From a virus, in IMG/VR virus record IMGVR_UViG_3300032304_001168: DNA of 64,000 nucleotides. The stretch is one strand, 5' to 3'. A model generated the notes under the pieces. The model was not told the DNA's origin. It did no database searches and saw only the letters and a list, made by a program, of their open reading frames with translations. Position 1 is the stretch's first letter. Each line of letters opens with the position of its first letter. Below are positions 2,528 through 18,682 of this stretch, piece by piece. The position numbers were made by a program, and so were the translations under genes.

Positions 2528-2608
2528 TGTGAATCTTTTAATTGATTTTGGGGGTGAGTTATATTGAGGTGTGTATATATTTTAGTTATGTGTAATAAAA
2601 AACTAAAA

Positions 2609-2830
2609 TTAAACTACCTCAACTTTATACAGTGTTCTATTACCTAAAATTTCTTTTGAAAAACTTTTAATCACATCATTATTTTTGTGTGAAATAGTTT
2701 CCACATCTGAATTATTCTTAAATTCTTCTAATGTTTTACTTAACCTGTTAAAGTAGATTTGTTCCCACAAAAATATACCAGTCCATTGTAAGTTTTTCAA
2801 AATAAAATCTGTTAATTTAGTTCTTTTCAT
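2609..2830 (-). CDS. hypothetical protein (cassette-borne)
   Basis: 73-aa ORF inside cassette 2585-3100. Confidence 0.65.
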   Translation of the reverse strand: MKRTKLTDFILKNLQWTGIFLWEQIYFNRLSKTLEEFKNNSDVETISHKNNDVIKSFSKEILGNRTLYKVEVV

Positions 2831-2848
2831 ATTGTTTAATTTTTAAAA

Positions 2849-3064
2849 TTATTTACCATATCTACTATTAACAAAAACTCTATTAGCTCCCGTTGTAAGT
2901 GATAATTGATTTTGTTGCTTCATCAATAGTTCAAATTGATTTTCTATTCTTAACCTGTCTGAATTACTTTTTAACATATTAATCAATTTATCCAACTCCA
3001 TATCTCTTTTTGAAGTTAGAAAACCAATTTGTTCCTTGTAATGTAGTTCGAGTTTTTGTTCCAT
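2849..3064 (-). CDS. hypothetical protein (cassette-borne)
   Basis: 71-aa ORF inside cassette 2585-3100. Confidence 0.65.
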   Translation of the reverse strand: MEQKLELHYKEQIGFLTSKRDMELDKLINMLKSNSDRLRIENQFELLMKQQNQLSLTTGANRVFVNSRYGK

Positions 3065-3097
3065 TTGTATAATTTTTTAGTTTTTTTACATACACAT

Positions 3098-3174
3098 AAC
3101 AACAAATATAAGAAATAAATTTTGATTTATCTATTTTTTATAGGTAAAATTTACTTCTCATATTTGCAACCGTT
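3098..3174. repeat. attC-like hairpin site (array 1)
   Basis: AAC-AA-CAAATATAAGAAATAAATTTT...AAAATTTACTTCTCATATTTG-CAACC-GTT; 21-bp arms with 2 mismatches. Confidence 0.75.
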
Positions 3175-3436
3175 AGCGGTAATGTTGAAAAGACAGCGTA
3201 TCGCCAGCATTGAACCTACCAACGCTATCCACAAACCAAGTTCCATACATATTCAAATCCATTTTATCAATAGGCTCGACTAAGTAAAGACTAGTTCCTT
3301 TTGTTTTGTTAGGTTTAATTCTTGTTACTACAAATTTTGATTGGCTATTAGGGAATTTGGTTTCTTCACCACAAGAAGAAAGTACTACAGCTAAAAACAC
3401 ATAGGCAAAAAAGCCGTTCAGTTTTCTATTTACCAT
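3173..3436 (-). CDS. putative lipoprotein (cassette-borne; cassette truncated on its right side)
   Basis: signal peptide with lipobox-like VLSSC; stop TAA lies within the CGCTAAC core box. Confidence 0.7.
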   Translation of the reverse strand: MVNRKLNGFFAYVFLAVVLSSCGEETKFPNSQSKFVVTRIKPNKTKGTSLYLVEPIDKMDLNMYGTWFVDSVGRFNAGDTLSFQHYR

Positions 3437-14253: not shown

Positions 14254-14898
14254 CTAAATCACAATTTCCCAACCTTTTTTCAAATAAAAATCTAAATCTT
14301 TTTCATCAATTTCTATTTCTCTTTCTAAATAAATTGTTTGTCTGCGATGTATATCCCCACATAGAACGATATCACATCCCTCAAATTTACTCACCTCATA
14401 TCCTGTTTCAAACTTATATCCAATGTCTGTATATAACCCTATAATAGGTCCGTGAAACAATCCAATTTTAAGGTTATTAGATTTCTCAATTGTTGGGGGA
14501 ATATTGTGTTCAAATAAAGAATATACAACCCAATCAATATTCTCATCAACATATACACCTCTATCTTTGTAATAGACAATGTTATCATTATTCATTGATT
14601 CAATGATGGGGGTTAATGTATCCAATCTTGATAAATTGTTCTCAAGCATATCATGATTTCCAACAATGATTATTGTTTTTGCAATCTTGGAACATTTATC
14701 TAATGTCCATCTAACCATTTCAATAAGTTCTGGGCTGACTTGGTTTTTACTATGGACTAGGTCGCCACTGAATACCAGTCTATCAGGTTTAATCTCTTTG
14801 AATTGATTAAACATATCAATCAATATTGATTTGTATAAATCGTGGTCTTTTATTAATCTCAAATGTAAATCAGAGAAGTGACAGATTGTTTTTATCAT
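14254..14898 (-). CDS. Mre11/SbcD/gp47-like metallophosphoesterase nuclease, N-terminal fragment
   Basis: motifs HFSDLH, GDLVH, GNHD, FHG, GDIH. Confidence 0.9.
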   Translation of the reverse strand: MIKTICHFSDLHLRLIKDHDLYKSILIDMFNQFKEIKPDRLVFSGDLVHSKNQVSPELIEMVRWTLDKCSKIAKTIIIVGNHDMLENNLSRLDTLTPIIESMNNDNIVYYKDRGVYVDENIDWVVYSLFEHNIPPTIEKSNNLKIGLFHGPIIGLYTDIGYKFETGYEVSKFEGCDIVLCGDIHRRQTIYLEREIEIDEKDLDFYLKKGWEIVI

Positions 14899-14915
14899 TT
14901 CAGTTTTTGTTTTGA
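14866..14915. repeat. 50-bp direct repeat, copy 1 (mre11 5' end); copy 2 at 15085-15134
   Basis: identical TAAATCAGAGAAGTGACAGATTG...CAGTTTTTGTTTTGA. Confidence 0.9.
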
Positions 14916-15054: not shown

Positions 15055-15086
15055 TTTTTCTTCCATCAAATACAACAATCATACTA
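15055..15086. repeat. 32-bp direct repeat of the Dam-like methyltransferase 3' end; other copy at 18235-18266
   Basis: identical TTTTTCTTCCATCAAATACAACAATCATACTA. Confidence 0.9.
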
Positions 15087-15231
15087 AATCAGAGAAGTGA
15101 CAGATTGTTTTTATCATTTCAGTTTTTGTTTTGAATTTCGTAATAGTTTCCCATTTTTACCTCTTAAATCATTGATTATTTGAGGTTTTAAAATAGGTGT
15201 TGATATATTATAGTTATACTCAATTAAAAAA

Positions 15232-15378
15232 TTATTTTGAGTTATATAATATATTCCATTCAGTATATGTATTTGATAATAATTCTTCTATTGTAATCCC
15301 AAATCTTATACAATCACCTAAACATATTTTGTAAAAATTCACACTTCTTTCGTTTATTATATATTCTGAAAATGTCAT
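15232..15378 (-). CDS. 48-aa hypothetical protein (cassette 15213-15423)
   Basis: MTFSEYIINERSVNFYKICLGDC...NSK*; flanked by GTTATACTCAATTAAAAAATTATTTT / AAAATAATTTTTTAACTAAGTATAAC. Confidence 0.5.
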   Translation of the reverse strand: MTFSEYIINERSVNFYKICLGDCIRFGITIEELLSNTYTEWNILYNSK

Positions 15379-15420
15379 ATTTGTATTTTTAATTTGTAAA
15401 ATAATTTTTTAACTAAGTAT

Positions 15421-15466
15421 AACAAAGTGTAAAAAACATTAAAACTATTTTTTACACTCAACCGTT
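15421..15466. repeat. attC-like site (short loop)
   Basis: AAC-AA-AGTGTAAAAAA..CATTAAAACTA..TTTTTTACACT-CAACC-GTT. Confidence 0.75.
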
Positions 15467-15474
15467 ATGTGTAA

Positions 15475-15792
15475 TTAAACAGAGAAACCCTCGTTAATCA
15501 AATATTTTGTTATTGAATGATGGTTGCTCAATGGTCTGTGTTCAATTGAAATATGTCCTTTGTTGTTTTTCCAAGTCCAAGTATGGTCAACTTCTAATTC
15601 TGAATTTACAGATAAACCATATTCAATTGTATGATAGTTATCAGATACAACACAATCTTCTACTTTAAATACAGCAATAATAAAATCTTTTTCAGGTGTC
15701 CATTCAACTTTACCAGCATTACAAGGTTTTCCGATAATCAAAGAGTATATCTGATTAATGTTTTCTATTGTTAAATCTTTTATCGTTTTCAT
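15475..15792 (-). CDS. hypothetical protein (cassette 15464-15823)
   Basis: likely start MKTIKDLT at 15792; arms GTTATGTGTA / TACACATAAC. Confidence 0.7.
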   Translation of the reverse strand: MKTIKDLTIENINQIYSLIIGKPCNAGKVEWTPEKDFIIAVFKVEDCVVSDNYHTIEYGLSVNSELEVDHTWTWKNNKGHISIEHRPLSNHHSITKYLINEGFSV

Positions 15793-15820
15793 AAATTTTT
15801 CGTTTAAATTAACTACACAT

Positions 15821-15906
15821 AACAAGGTGTATATGTAATTTTTTTACAAAGGTACGAATAAGTTTTGACATTTCCAAATAAAAAACTACATATACACCCA
15901 TACGTT
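15821..15906. repeat. attC-like site with a promoter in its loop; near-identical to 16522-16606
   Basis: AAC-AA-GGTGTATATGTAATTTTTT...AAAAAACTACATATACACC-CATAC-GTT. Confidence 0.8.
15847..15878 (-). promoter_or_regulatory. Bacteroidota primary-sigma promoter (-33 TTTG / -7 TAnnTTTG)
   Basis: minus strand TTTG-N20-TACCTTTG pointing into the cassette gene. Confidence 0.75.
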
Positions 15907-15922
15907 ATAAGCAATATTATTT

Positions 15923-16165
15923 TTATTTTGAGTATCTATTTTTAAAATCCTCAAATGCTTCTAAAATTGTGTTTCCCACACCATAGTTCACATGTTCCCA
16001 TTCTTCTTTCATAAAGTGATGTGGGTCATATTGCCACTCTTCGTTTCCTTCAAGTGAGTTTACACAATCAGCATCACAACATGTTTCTACAATAGCAAAT
16101 TTACCGTGTCTCATGTGAACTATGGTCATTGGGTAAATGTCTTCAATTTTGTTTATATTCTTCAT
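15923..16165 (-). CDS. hypothetical protein (cassette 15904-16214)
   Basis: arms GTTATAAGCAATATTATTTTTATTTT / AAAATAAAAATAATACAGCTTATAAC. Confidence 0.7.
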   Translation of the reverse strand: MKNINKIEDIYPMTIVHMRHGKFAIVETCCDADCVNSLEGNEEWQYDPHHFMKEEWEHVNYGVGNTILEAFEDFKNRYSK

Positions 16166-16211
16166 AATTTTAAGTTTTTTAAATCGGTAAAATAAAAATA
16201 ATACAGCTTAT

Positions 16212-16257
16212 AACAACAAATATATTGCATTAAAACGACAATATATTTGCAACCGTT
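16212..16257. repeat. attC-like site (short loop)
   Basis: AAC-AA-CAAATATATTG-CATTAAAACGA-CAATATATTTG-CAACC-GTT. Confidence 0.8.
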
Positions 16258-16278
16258 ATGTGTAATAAAAAATAACTA

Positions 16279-16482
16279 TCAAACCTCGTTTCCATCATCA
16301 AAGATTGTAAAACACGATTTGTCTGATAAAGTCACCTTATATCCAACATATCCACCATCTGCAAAAATGTGCAAGTCTGTTATCCATTCATCAGTTGCAC
16401 CTTTTTCATCTAATTTGCTTTGTATTTTCACTCTTGCTGCATCGTGTTTTACAAAGTCTAATGTTATTCTATTTGCCCACAT
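16279..16482 (-). CDS. hypothetical protein (cassette 16255-16524)
   Basis: arms GTTATGTGTAATAAAAAATAACT / AGTTATTTTTTACATACACATAAC. Confidence 0.7.
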   Translation of the reverse strand: MWANRITLDFVKHDAARVKIQSKLDEKGATDEWITDLHIFADGGYVGYKVTLSDKSCFTIFDDGNEV

Positions 16483-16521
16483 ATTATTAAGTTTAGTTTA
16501 AGTTATTTTTTACATACACAT

Positions 16522-16606
16522 AACAAGGTGTATATGTAATTTTTTACAAAAGTACGAATAAGTTTTGACATTTCCAAATAAAAAACTACATATACACCCA
16601 ACCGTT
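16522..16606. repeat. attC-like site with a promoter in its loop
   Basis: near-identical to 15821-15906; minus-strand TTTG-N20-TACTTTTG at 16547-16578. Confidence 0.8.
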
Positions 16607-16634
16607 AGCACCAATACTACGAAAGTGCTTCGAT

Positions 16635-17252
16635 TTAAATTTCGTTTGGATTTTCATAGATTATTACTGGGATTTTTTTAATTTTTAATCTTTTTGCAGC
16701 TTCCCATCTATGATGTCCATCTAATATACCAAAATCATAATCAAGTAATATTGGTGGTAATTCATCACCATTTTTTAATTTCTTAATTATGTTCAATATA
16801 TTTTGTTCTTCTTGTTTTTCAGTTCCATATATTCTCGAATCATTGGTATCAATATATTTCAATTTACTCAAATATCTCCCAATCTCAATACCTCTCGTAT
16901 CACTCCACAAATATTTTTGTTTATTAACCAAATCTGTGTCAGTATTATACACCAAATCTGGTTTCTTTTCTTTTGGTTGTTTTAATTTTGGTTCAATTTT
17001 TATACCTTTTTTGGTTTCAACAAAATTGAAAAGATTTATAATATCACTTGGATTATCTTCACCAAATATTTTGCTAAATTGTTTATTATTATGCTCAACG
17101 GCACGATTCACATCATTGTATGCAGTCTCCAAATCTTTATAGTATCTATCTTTAAAAGATGAATACCACCCATACATTTTTTTTACATCTAAATCTTGGC
17201 TTTCATTAAGATATTCTCTTATTGTAGTTGCTATAAATTTTCTCAATTCCAT
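16635..17252 (-). CDS. ParB/Srx-like domain protein (cassette 16604-17320)
   Basis: LPPILLD..GILDGHHRWEAAKRLKIKKIPVII; N-terminal MELRKFIATTIREYLNE; arms GTTAGCACCA / TGGTGCTAAC. Confidence 0.8.
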   Translation of the reverse strand: MELRKFIATTIREYLNESQDLDVKKMYGWYSSFKDRYYKDLETAYNDVNRAVEHNNKQFSKIFGEDNPSDIINLFNFVETKKGIKIEPKLKQPKEKKPDLVYNTDTDLVNKQKYLWSDTRGIEIGRYLSKLKYIDTNDSRIYGTEKQEEQNILNIIKKLKNGDELPPILLDYDFGILDGHHRWEAAKRLKIKKIPVIIYENPNEI

Positions 17253-17317
17253 GTTCTTTTACTTTATATATAAATATTCCAAAATTAAATTTTTGCTAAA
17301 CAAACCGTACTGGTGCT

Positions 17318-17403
17318 AACAAGGTGTATAAGAAAGTTTGCTATCAATATTTGTGGTAATTTGAGAGTTCATCTAAGCAAACCTTCTAATACACCCAACC
17401 GTT
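17318..17403. repeat. attC-like site
   Basis: AAC-AA-GGTGTATAAGAAAGTTTGCT...AGCAAACCTTCTAATACACC-CAACC-GTT. Confidence 0.78.
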
Positions 17404-17419
17404 AGCAGTAATATTGTGG

Positions 17420-17659
17420 CTACTTCCCAATTGGTCTATTACAAGTTGCACAGATATAACTACCATTCATTAAATAACATTGAGATTGCTGACAGCCACA
17501 ATACATACTGCTAACATCGGCTATACGCAAGTTTTTTGCTTCCGTTAGTCGGTTAATAACATTGTTTGCCTCTATCAACATTTCAATCAATTTGTCTTTT
17601 TCTATCATTTGATACATCTCTACTTTTTCAGAGTGTGTCATTTCAATTACTTGCATCAT
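17420..17659 (-). CDS. hypothetical protein starting inside an attC-like loop, with a Cys-rich C-terminus
   Basis: reads through the site arm and core as LRIADV-SSMYCGC. Confidence 0.7.
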   Translation of the reverse strand: MMQVIEMTHSEKVEMYQMIEKDKLIEMLIEANNVINRLTEAKNLRIADVSSMYCGCQQSQCYLMNGSYICATCNRPIGK

Positions 17660-17718
17660 ATATTTTAATTTTAGTGTTTCAAATTCGCAAAAAACCTGAC
17701 GTATAGCCGAGAACCGTT
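17513..17718. repeat. attC-like site with a long coding loop
   Basis: AAC-A-TCGGCTATACGCAAGTTTTTTGC...GCAAAAAACCTGACGTATAGCCGA-GAACC-GTT. Confidence 0.72.
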
Positions 17719-17980
17719 ATAGATAATAAGCATCCAACACACTTTCAATATAACCTATTGATATGTGTATTTTAACTAAATCATCATATGTTTTTATACG
17801 TTCAAAAAATTCCTCTTTATTCAACCACTCCACATAGAAACCACCTTCATGTAAATTCATACAATATCCATCATATTCCGTATAAAAACTATCTAACAGC
17901 TTACTATCTATAACATCAGATATATGTAATTTTTCATTACTCTTATCTAAGTTTTGTTCTAAATTTTTATCTTCTTTCAT
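17717..17980 (-). CDS. hypothetical protein starting inside an attC-like loop
   Basis: reads through the site as LHISDV-IDSK; stop TAA lies in the TATAAC core. Confidence 0.7.
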   Translation of the reverse strand: MKEDKNLEQNLDKSNEKLHISDVIDSKLLDSFYTEYDGYCMNLHEGGFYVEWLNKEEFFERIKTYDDLVKIHISIGYIESVLDAYYL

Positions 17981-18023
17981 CTTATTAAATTTTGTGTTAA
18001 AACTACATATATCTGTAACCGTT
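17912..18023. repeat. attC-like site with a coding loop
   Basis: AAC-AT-CAGATATATGTAATTTT...AAAACTACATATATCTG-TAACC-GTT. Confidence 0.75.
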
Positions 18024-18031
18024 ATAAAACA

Positions 18032-18682
18032 TTATAAACGACCACCCCACTCAAATCTAACATATTCAACTTTAAAATCAACATCGTAAATCTCTTTTAG
18101 TAAATTTACAGCATATTGTTCATAACTACAATTCTTATCATATTCTAAACGATGTTGATTATCGTTTACTTCCATTGTCATATGTTCACCTTCGAAACTA
18201 TGACTTTCAATAAATTTGATTTCCATATTTTTAATTTTTCTTCCATCAAATACAACAATCATACTATCTTTTGTACCACTTTGTACTTTACCCTTTGAAT
18301 TTACAGGATAATAAAAATTACCATCATTGTCAACTTTCCCAAATTTAATCCTCCCCCTTACAAATTCAATTTCAGTCGCATTTGGTTTAATATAATCGTG
18401 AAATAACTTTGTGGAGGTGGAAACTGGTATCAAAAATACACAAACTTTTCCCTTCTTCATCTCCTCAATCCCTTTCTTAATAAAGGCCTCCTTTAACTTC
18501 TGACTATATGGGGGATTTATGAAAGTTGACATCCCCCATTCAATATTTAAACCATCAATATCAACATCCTTTTCATTATATGGACAAGGGTCAAAATCAA
18601 ATTTAAACCTCTTATTTAACTCCTCATAAAATTCTGGGGGTGTTGCATAATTATCATCATTATTAATGTGAATCTTTTTCAT
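18032..18682 (-). CDS. phage Dam-like DNA N6-adenine methyltransferase fused in frame to an unrelated about 64-aa C-terminal ORF
   Basis: YATP, FDFDPC, NPPY, FVRGRIKF; after SMIVVFDGRK the frame continues into MEIKFIESHSF... Confidence 0.85.
   Translation of the reverse strand: MKKIHINNDDNYATPPEFYEELNKRFKFDFDPCPYNEKDVDIDGLNIEWGMSTFINPPYSQKLKEAFIKKGIEEMKKGKVCVFLIPVSTSTKLFHDYIKPNATEIEFVRGRIKFGKVDNDGNFYYPVNSKGKVQSGTKDSMIVVFDGRKIKNMEIKFIESHSFEGEHMTMEVNDNQHRLEYDKNCSYEQYAVNLLKEIYDVDFKVEYVRFEWGGRL

Follow-up and report, generated by a model that had tools for sequence, protein, structure and literature searches.

ORF1 and ORF2, two short genes that read through attC-like hairpins in a phage-like genome, are probably cassette genes of a phage integron-like array, in which whole units move and in which protein heads and tails re-assort at a valine codon formed by the hairpin core. 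The window, by which we mean the entire stretch of 64,000 nucleotides that was analysed, is a phage-like contig of 29% GC that carries the genes of its 1-21 kb region on the minus strand. ORF1 (17420-17659, minus strand, 79 aa) consists of a head, N1, and a tail, C1, and ORF2 (17717-17980, minus strand, 87 aa) of a leader, N2, and a tail, C2. As an initial annotation of this DNA had noted, both begin within the loops of recombination sites and cross arm and core as L-x-I-x-D-V, with the core GTT read as Val both times; the two sites that it placed at 17513-17718 and 17912-18023 agree to 1 nt with the attC-like hairpins H2 (17512-17719) and H3 (17911-18024) described here.

The arrays, their hairpins and the two read-through genes

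The main integron-like cassette array (15213-18024, minus strand) is made up of seven hairpin-plus-body units in coding order and fills the interval between the Dam methylase stop codon (18032) and a docking motif, and in a close relative (L067) homology to the window picks up again at 15217. A second array (2568-3175, minus strand) holds one cassette, with a hairpin at 3097-3175 and a body at 2585-3100 that contains two ORFs, and also terminates on a docking motif. On the coding strand, each hairpin (H) has the layout TAAC, 5-nt spacer, arm, loop, arm, 1-2 nt spacer, GTTA, and each body (B) runs from GTTA to TAAC with its two ends pairing with each other. A detector for this arrangement (TAACG..stem..GTTA) found eight sites on the minus strand of the window, none on the plus strand and none in shuffled sequences. 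In a complete 288-kb phage relative (G003), it found 10 sites on one strand versus 0 on the other, and in all fetched DNA 246 hairpin sites versus about 6 in shuffles. The sequence AACCGTTA occurs seven times in the window, always on the plus strand, where 1.3 occurrences are expected. The arms differ among site families yet remain complementary, so that they covary; an Rfam search of the sites returned a chance match only, and no family.

The mismatches in these stems are unevenly distributed, with 188 G.T on the coding strand versus 16 A.C or C.A, and when DNA energy parameters were applied the coding-strand hairpin was the more stable in 154 of 177 sites. By these measures, H is an element predicted to fold as single-stranded DNA on the coding strand. 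The ends of the bodies pair with their own partner over a median of 10 nt, versus 4 nt for non-own pairs (135 bodies). All sites, for example 16521-16607 and 17911-18024, have a conserved G.T pair (TAGT facing ATTA) some 13 bp inside the hairpin arm, which recurs in the body-end pairing and exists on the coding strand only; this pair may set the choice of strand.

In the case of ORF1, the hairpin site H2 (minus strand) reads, on the coding strand, TAAC (17719-17716), ggttc, the arm TCGGCTATACG (17710-17700), a 172-nt loop, the arm CGTATAGCCGA (17527-17517), t and GTTA (17515-17512). The loop contains the ATG of ORF1, at 17659, and its 48-codon head, which continues across arm and core as ..N-L-R-I-A-D-V-S-S.., the core GTT (17515-17513) being Val codon 49. 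N1 thus comprises codons 1-48 plus Val 49 and is a long helix, and C1 is a Cys-rich beta ribbon: a single-sequence AlphaFold model of ORF1 shows a helix at residues 9-54, pLDDT below 50 at residues 48-51, where the joint lies, and then beta hairpins or a ribbon. The body B1 (17401-17515, minus strand) is bounded by GTTA and TAAC and its ends pair (17494-17515 with 17401-17421). Downstream, the cassette of ORF1 is bounded by H1 (17317-17404, minus strand), a compact site with a 33-nt loop that holds no start codon. Full-length relatives of ORF1 that lack the site motif also occur (P0010, P0063 and P0073). In addition, 2440-2790 of L098 is a fossil ORF1 cassette, in which the 5' (non-coding) arm and both TAAC cores are mutated, with the coding arm and GTT kept in the gene.

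The site of ORF2, H3 (minus strand), belongs to a family present in 43 IMG/VR loci, and reads on the coding strand TAAC, ggtta, CAGATATATGTAGTTTT, a 65-nt loop, AAAATTACATATATCTG, at and GTTA. Its loop carries the ATG, at 17980, and the leader of ORF2, which crosses arm and core as ..K-L-H-I-S-D-V-I-D-S.., with GTT (17914-17912) as Val codon 23. N2 therefore corresponds to codons 1-23 (17980-17912) and ends in L-H-I-S-D-V, and C2 to 17911-17717. The body B2 (17716-17914, minus strand) has GTTA and TAAC as its bounds, and its ends pair over 16 nt at 94% (17899-17914 with 17716-17731). An AlphaFold model of ORF2 was poor (pLDDT 43) and was left unused. The claim that both ORFs end in or beside the far arm of their cassettes was borne out, since the TAG stop of ORF1 (17422-17420) sits within the far-end inverted repeat of its cassette, and the TAA stop of ORF2 coincides with the opening TAA of the TAAC core that follows (17719-17717). 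Neither ORF has a match in Pfam or PHROGs.

Other sites in the family carry different cargo. The compact sites 15820-15907 and 16521-16607 are near-identical, and on the coding strand their loops hold a Bacteroidota-type promoter, TTTG-N20-TAnnTTTG (here TTTG-N20-TACTTTTG), which indicates the phylum of the host. At 8145-8433 of L067, a hairpin has a complete 57-aa Cys-rich ORF in its 169-nt loop and is followed by an ‘empty’ 29-nt body that is itself just a short hairpin. Genes can thus be housed entirely in a loop or entirely in a body, or can extend across the arm. A by-eye reading of ORF 15475-15825 as a further core-crossing ORF proved wrong on recheck.

In a blastn search of a phage database the Dam gene was the sole match, and the nearest record (G001) had no match to the region. 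The Dam methylase of the window (18032-18682) has 216 aa and those of the close relatives L067 and L068 have 150 aa, with 99% identity to the window protein over residues 1-149. Dam homology is lost near 18240 in all 30 relatives. A stretch of 26 nt, 18240-18265, is repeated exactly at 15060-15085, and behind this repeat 15085-15134 reproduces, without a change, the first 50 nt of a metallophosphatase gene (14866-14915). From their arrangement, the Dam and metallophosphatase duplications look like a recombination scar adjoining the docking motif.

Joints at the two cores and frames across the site

The initial annotation had left two outcomes side by side, an ORF that travels whole and an in-frame swap of N- and C-terminal modules at the core, and had held that the arm pairings do not decide between them. 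The pairings indeed leave the matter even, because the chain of hairpins is symmetric. We had taken body-end pairing as a decider of the crossover and have withdrawn this, as the symmetric chain hides which flanking hairpin owns a body. Genome comparison revealed both outcomes.

For ORF1, movement of the whole cassette is seen in L097, which is 95.7% identical to the window over 17722-17401 with both flanks unrelated, and in which one break falls immediately at the proximal TAAC and the other at the terminal TAAC of the body. It is seen again in a contig from another lake sample (run X3), which covers 17400-17728 at 98% and has unlike flanks on both sides. Four further independent cases elsewhere have a hairpin and its downstream body in new contexts, and in three cases one upstream body is followed by different hairpin-plus-body units. 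In 77 of 90 pairs, exact identity ends 0-1 nt before TAAC. The tail of ORF2 is encoded by no IMG/VR locus, so that movement of a whole cassette is documented for ORF1 only. From these alignments, the cassettes move as units with a crossover at the core, as do those of integrons. The sequencing runs consist of assembled contigs, in which rare joints cannot show; neither excised circles nor recombination products were seen, and joints with sides of 21-31 nt were left out of the evidence.

The second joint lies at the distal GTTA. H2 is conserved in L097, L100 and L101 and breaks at both cores; in L100 and L101 the match to the window is exact between TAAC and ..CGTATAGCCGATGTTAG, after which the tails are unrelated. 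Likewise, L035 and L042 have an upstream body and hairpin in common and diverge right behind GTTA, and L083 and L090 carry the same Dam body with unrelated hairpins. All 13 IMG/VR relatives of ORF2 match its residues 1-23 or 1-26 only. Among metagenome proteins, 21 unrelated tail clusters carry the ORF1 head (80% identity or more), and the ORF1 tail C1 follows 11 clusters of heads, which bring four or more distinct arms (among them LRIADV, LRQPP, LERESD and NIVVQAD); the ORF2 leader is found on 66 tail clusters, and the ORF2 tail behind five heads. The annotation had proposed to look for like N-terminal halves on unrelated C-terminal halves at the GTT codon, and this is what we found, with homology ending 0-2 nt after GTTA. 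It had also named homologues that keep the same halves together as the contrary case; in the metagenome proteins the halves do not stay together.

Where two sites share a distal hairpin half but have unrelated bodies, the exact match stops 0-2 nt past GTTA in 122 of 148 pairs (82%). With breaks clustered at GTTA and at TAAC, both cores are sharp evolutionary joints. The unbiased set holds few independent events, about five of one kind and three to four of the other. Such break positions would be left equally by site-specific exchange and by crossover within a conserved element, because both end at the edge of the element.

The frames that cross the core show several signals of coding. A start within the site and in the GTT frame is present at 75 of 189 unique related sites, and 59 of these 75 frames stay open for at least 25 codons beyond the core, versus about 10% by chance. 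Of 83 long-loop sites, which were not picked by the search pattern, 34 have an in-site start whose frame, that of the GTT, continues beyond the core for 25 codons or more, about eight use the +1 frame (one site family) and none uses +2. Close copies of the ORF1 head, including copies on different tails or bodies, have a pN/pS of 0.06-0.22, and by this measure of substitution the head is shown to be under purifying selection. The leader of ORF2 is short and of low complexity, with diversities at the three codon positions (0.12/0.04/0.10) that are weakly coding-like; its lengths are 60, 63, 66, 69 and 72 nt, all indels being multiples of 3. Of the 66 tails on this leader, 54 lack a Met at their start, several of them having no Met at all, and 12 have a Met directly following the Val. 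The motif L-x-I-x-D/A-V-x-x-S is a translation of conserved site nucleotides (TTA..ATA..GMT GTT A....AGT) and hence not a protein-level motif. In the single RNA run, coverage was limited to 15085-15323. Taken together, these sequence signals support the earlier proposal that the recombination site is also protein-coding, and the site-spanning fusions look maintained and translated.

The second site family (L023, L009, L024, L033 and L095) crosses the core in the +1 frame, as ..A-N-T-L|L.., and one of its tails resembles a DNA methyltransferase (..DPPY..).

A linked recombinase, a docking motif and the origin of the chimeras

Turning to the enzyme, no recombinase gene was found within the 64-kb window, nor behind either docking motif there. 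In related IMG/VR records, a tyrosine recombinase (PF00589, 266-268 aa) is present in 8 of 18 long records, and in only one of the five estimated to be at least 90% complete. Hairpin sites lie just upstream of it and on the same strand in all seven loci that have upstream DNA, and the motif TAAC-TATNATATAT precedes the recombinase ATG by 30-50 nt in 7/7 related loci. The same motif terminates both arrays of the window, at 15196-15216 for the main array (minus strand; coding strand TAAC TATAATATATCAACACC) and at 2568-2588 for the second (minus strand; TAAC TAAAATATATACACACC, nearly the same as the main-array motif). Both are near-identical to the sequence directly upstream of the recombinase gene of L045. 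We infer from this placement that the motif is an attI-like docking site. The recombinase scores best against XerA, XerC/D and IntI models, below every cut-off and with XerA the best. Against TIGR02249 (integron integrase) it reaches 152-158 bits in two stretches, with a cut-off of 265, and its match to PDB 2a3v (IntI4) is likewise split in two; the two-piece match to integron integrases indicates a recombinase without the IntI-specific insertion.

Two complete phages, G023 (35.5 kb) and G024 (39.3 kb, with terminal repeats), have two sites each (L116-L119), including the H2 type with the ORF1 head, and the cassettes are thus common to very different phages. A tyrosine recombinase was not found in either of these two genomes. 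The enzyme may act in trans or come from the host.

In about half of the long-loop sites the loop carries a predicted translation start together with an N-terminal module, whose frame through arm and core is always the same, so that bodies, most of which lack a start of their own, receive a start codon and a head from the hairpin. A unit of hairpin and body moves whole, breaking at the proximal TAAC, and would enter the docking motif beside the Xer-like tyrosine recombinase. We infer from linkage alone that this recombinase catalyses the whole-unit path, and by analogy it would act on the folded coding strand and cut at TAA|C, much as IntI acts on the bottom strand of attC. Hairpins and bodies also re-assort at the distal GTTA, the Val codon, to yield in-frame head/tail chimeras. 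This second joint could be the work of the recombinase, either at the less stable hairpin of the complementary strand or with GTT serving as a secondary site; alternatively, exchange between short homologies could make it.

That both hairpin cores are true recombinase crossovers, the proximal one through the coding-strand hairpin and the distal one through the complementary-strand hairpin or a secondary GTT, is a tentative reading, with somewhat less than an even chance. Were the recombinase to cross over precisely at G|TTA, the reading frame would be preserved of its own accord. If this reading is true, loops with their heads or promoters and bodies with their tails are re-assorted independently and always in frame, and the system would be a natural machine that shuffles the domains of small phage proteins combinatorially at the level of DNA. 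It would also offer a model for the origin of integron cassettes, in which a recombination site comes to be joined to a new gene. A live but less likely account is that only the whole-cassette path is site-specific and that no enzyme acts at the Val codon, the chimeras having arisen by homologous or microhomology exchange or by template switching at the hairpin base. The patches available to such exchange would be 17-36 nt of the distal arm and 8-12 nt families after GTTA. Different heads do agree over their final 8-12 codons (as in ..ITEAKNLRIADV of P0018 and ..ELKNLRIANV of P0045), the halves of hairpins assort separately (153 + 58 pairs share one half only), some unrelated bodies have GTTA plus 8-13 nt in common, and homologous shuffling mediated by PeSLs is a documented precedent (PMC2839356, PMC4122927). 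However, the same tail is found behind hairpins that are alike in ..T-GTTA only, as with the Dam body of L083 and L090 and the arms in front of C1, and 82% of the breaks fall 0-2 nt from the core.

Two further accounts bear on the hairpin and on the start codon rather than on the joint. It is improbable that the hairpins serve chiefly as structures of the mRNA, in control of its translation or processing near the start codon, with the mosaicism of the DNA as a by-product. This would fit the strong bias of G.U-type wobbles to the sense strand and the bracketing of start codon and leader by the arms, but homology breaks exactly at both cores, the sites are tightly linked to a tyrosine recombinase and a docking motif, no Rfam family matches them, and compact sites of the same family hold a host-type promoter in the loop, so that transcripts beginning there (15820-15907 and 16521-16607) would be without the 5' arm. 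More improbable still is that the loop ATGs go unused, that the true genes begin past the core and that the open frame across the site is incidental. The short, low-complexity and weakly constrained leader of ORF2 (0.12/0.04/0.10) could be read in this way, as could the 12 of 66 tails with a Met right after the Val; against it stand the 54 tails with no Met at the joint, several with none anywhere, the 59 of 75 frames that are open where chance gives 10%, leader indels that are all multiples of 3, and the low pN/pS of N1 (0.06-0.22). We retain the reading of ORF1 and ORF2 as cassette genes whose units move whole and whose heads and tails re-assort at the Val codon.

Comparison with known systems

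Clusters of attC sites have been reported in virulent phages, including a Polaribacter phage site that can be recombined by IntI1 (Qi et al. 2023, PMC9892861). The arrays described here resemble integrons, especially sedentary chromosomal integrons with their near-identical attC sites, in being arrays of one-gene units with imperfect hairpins and AAC/GTT cores, one strand of which folds better. As in integrons, the ends of each unit pair together, whole units move and break at the core, many unrelated genes carry the same site, and the docking site adjoins a tyrosine recombinase gene, in a position next to the enzyme, like that of attI, in 7/7 loci. The TAAC..arm..arm..GTTA layout and the covarying arms are those of attC-type hairpins, with a spacer geometry unlike that of attC. 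When the layout is read from the complementary strand, the order is that of an integron: recombinase, docking site, then cassettes that each end in a hairpin. There are also clear differences. The recombinase is a Xer-like protein of 266-268 aa without the IntI insertion; the genes are on the strand that folds and run in the direction of the docking site and the recombinase; the spacer is of 5 nt on one side of the hairpin against 1-2 nt on the other, and the arms carry conserved G.T pairs; and the sites carry promoters or start codons with heads, whereas integron cassettes are promoterless and are read from the platform promoter Pc, away from attI. Finally, the second core (the R'' side) is here an evolutionary joint as well, in frame inside genes.

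A parallel to the read-through frames is provided by ORF-11 and ORF-18 in attI1 of class 1 integrons, which span the crossover and act by translational coupling (PMC8876359). There too, a short ORF with its own start spans the crossover and helps to express cassettes that lack a start region; however, the peptide normally ends at a stop in the cassette core and the arrangement is confined to attI, whereas the site-borne ORF described here runs on as an in-frame fusion and lies within cassette hairpins. The PeSLs (promoter/stem-loop motifs) of T4-like phages are similarly repeated regulatory stem-loops between small genes, situated in variable regions of large phages, that serve as points of modular exchange (PMC2839356, PMC4122927). 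They are sequence-conserved repeats, each an early promoter with a terminator stem-loop, thought to act via homologous recombination, and have no conserved core, linked recombinase, docking site or encoded protein heads. Like PeSLs, some of the sites here carry promoters, and their hairpin halves assort separately; on the other side, their arms covary between families, their breaks fall at 4-nt cores and a recombinase is linked to them.

The cargo of the arrays includes many Cys-rich ribbons, and a role for it in host takeover or counter-defence is plausible, if putative. Public metagenomes hold dozens of natural experiments of this type, with one head on 21 tails and another on 66, from which it could be tested at which of the two cores, and in which strand, the cut is made, whether a Xer-like enzyme of this small size can drive an integron-like system, and whether phages use it to build and express libraries of small chimeric proteins.

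In shufflons, such as that of R64 with Rci and pilV, the recombination site likewise lies within a coding sequence, and C-termini are exchanged in frame by inversion between inverted sites. Shufflons thus share with the present arrays a site inside a coding sequence and the in-frame swapping of protein ends; however, inversion is there confined to one locus, whereas here the sites point the same way and the swaps are between genomes. No inverted variant was seen, all eight sites of the window and all 10 of G003 being on one strand and in one orientation. Xer/dif modules, for their part, are flanked by 28-bp double-stranded XerC/XerD sites with a 6-bp spacer. Our literature search found no published description of cassette hairpins that encode in-frame protein heads. 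To our knowledge, the recombination sites of integrons are regarded as non-coding, and their attachment to new genes still awaits an explanation; in the arrays described here the site is predicted to be translated, and the junction of site and gene would thereby be visible in proteins and held to one reading frame.
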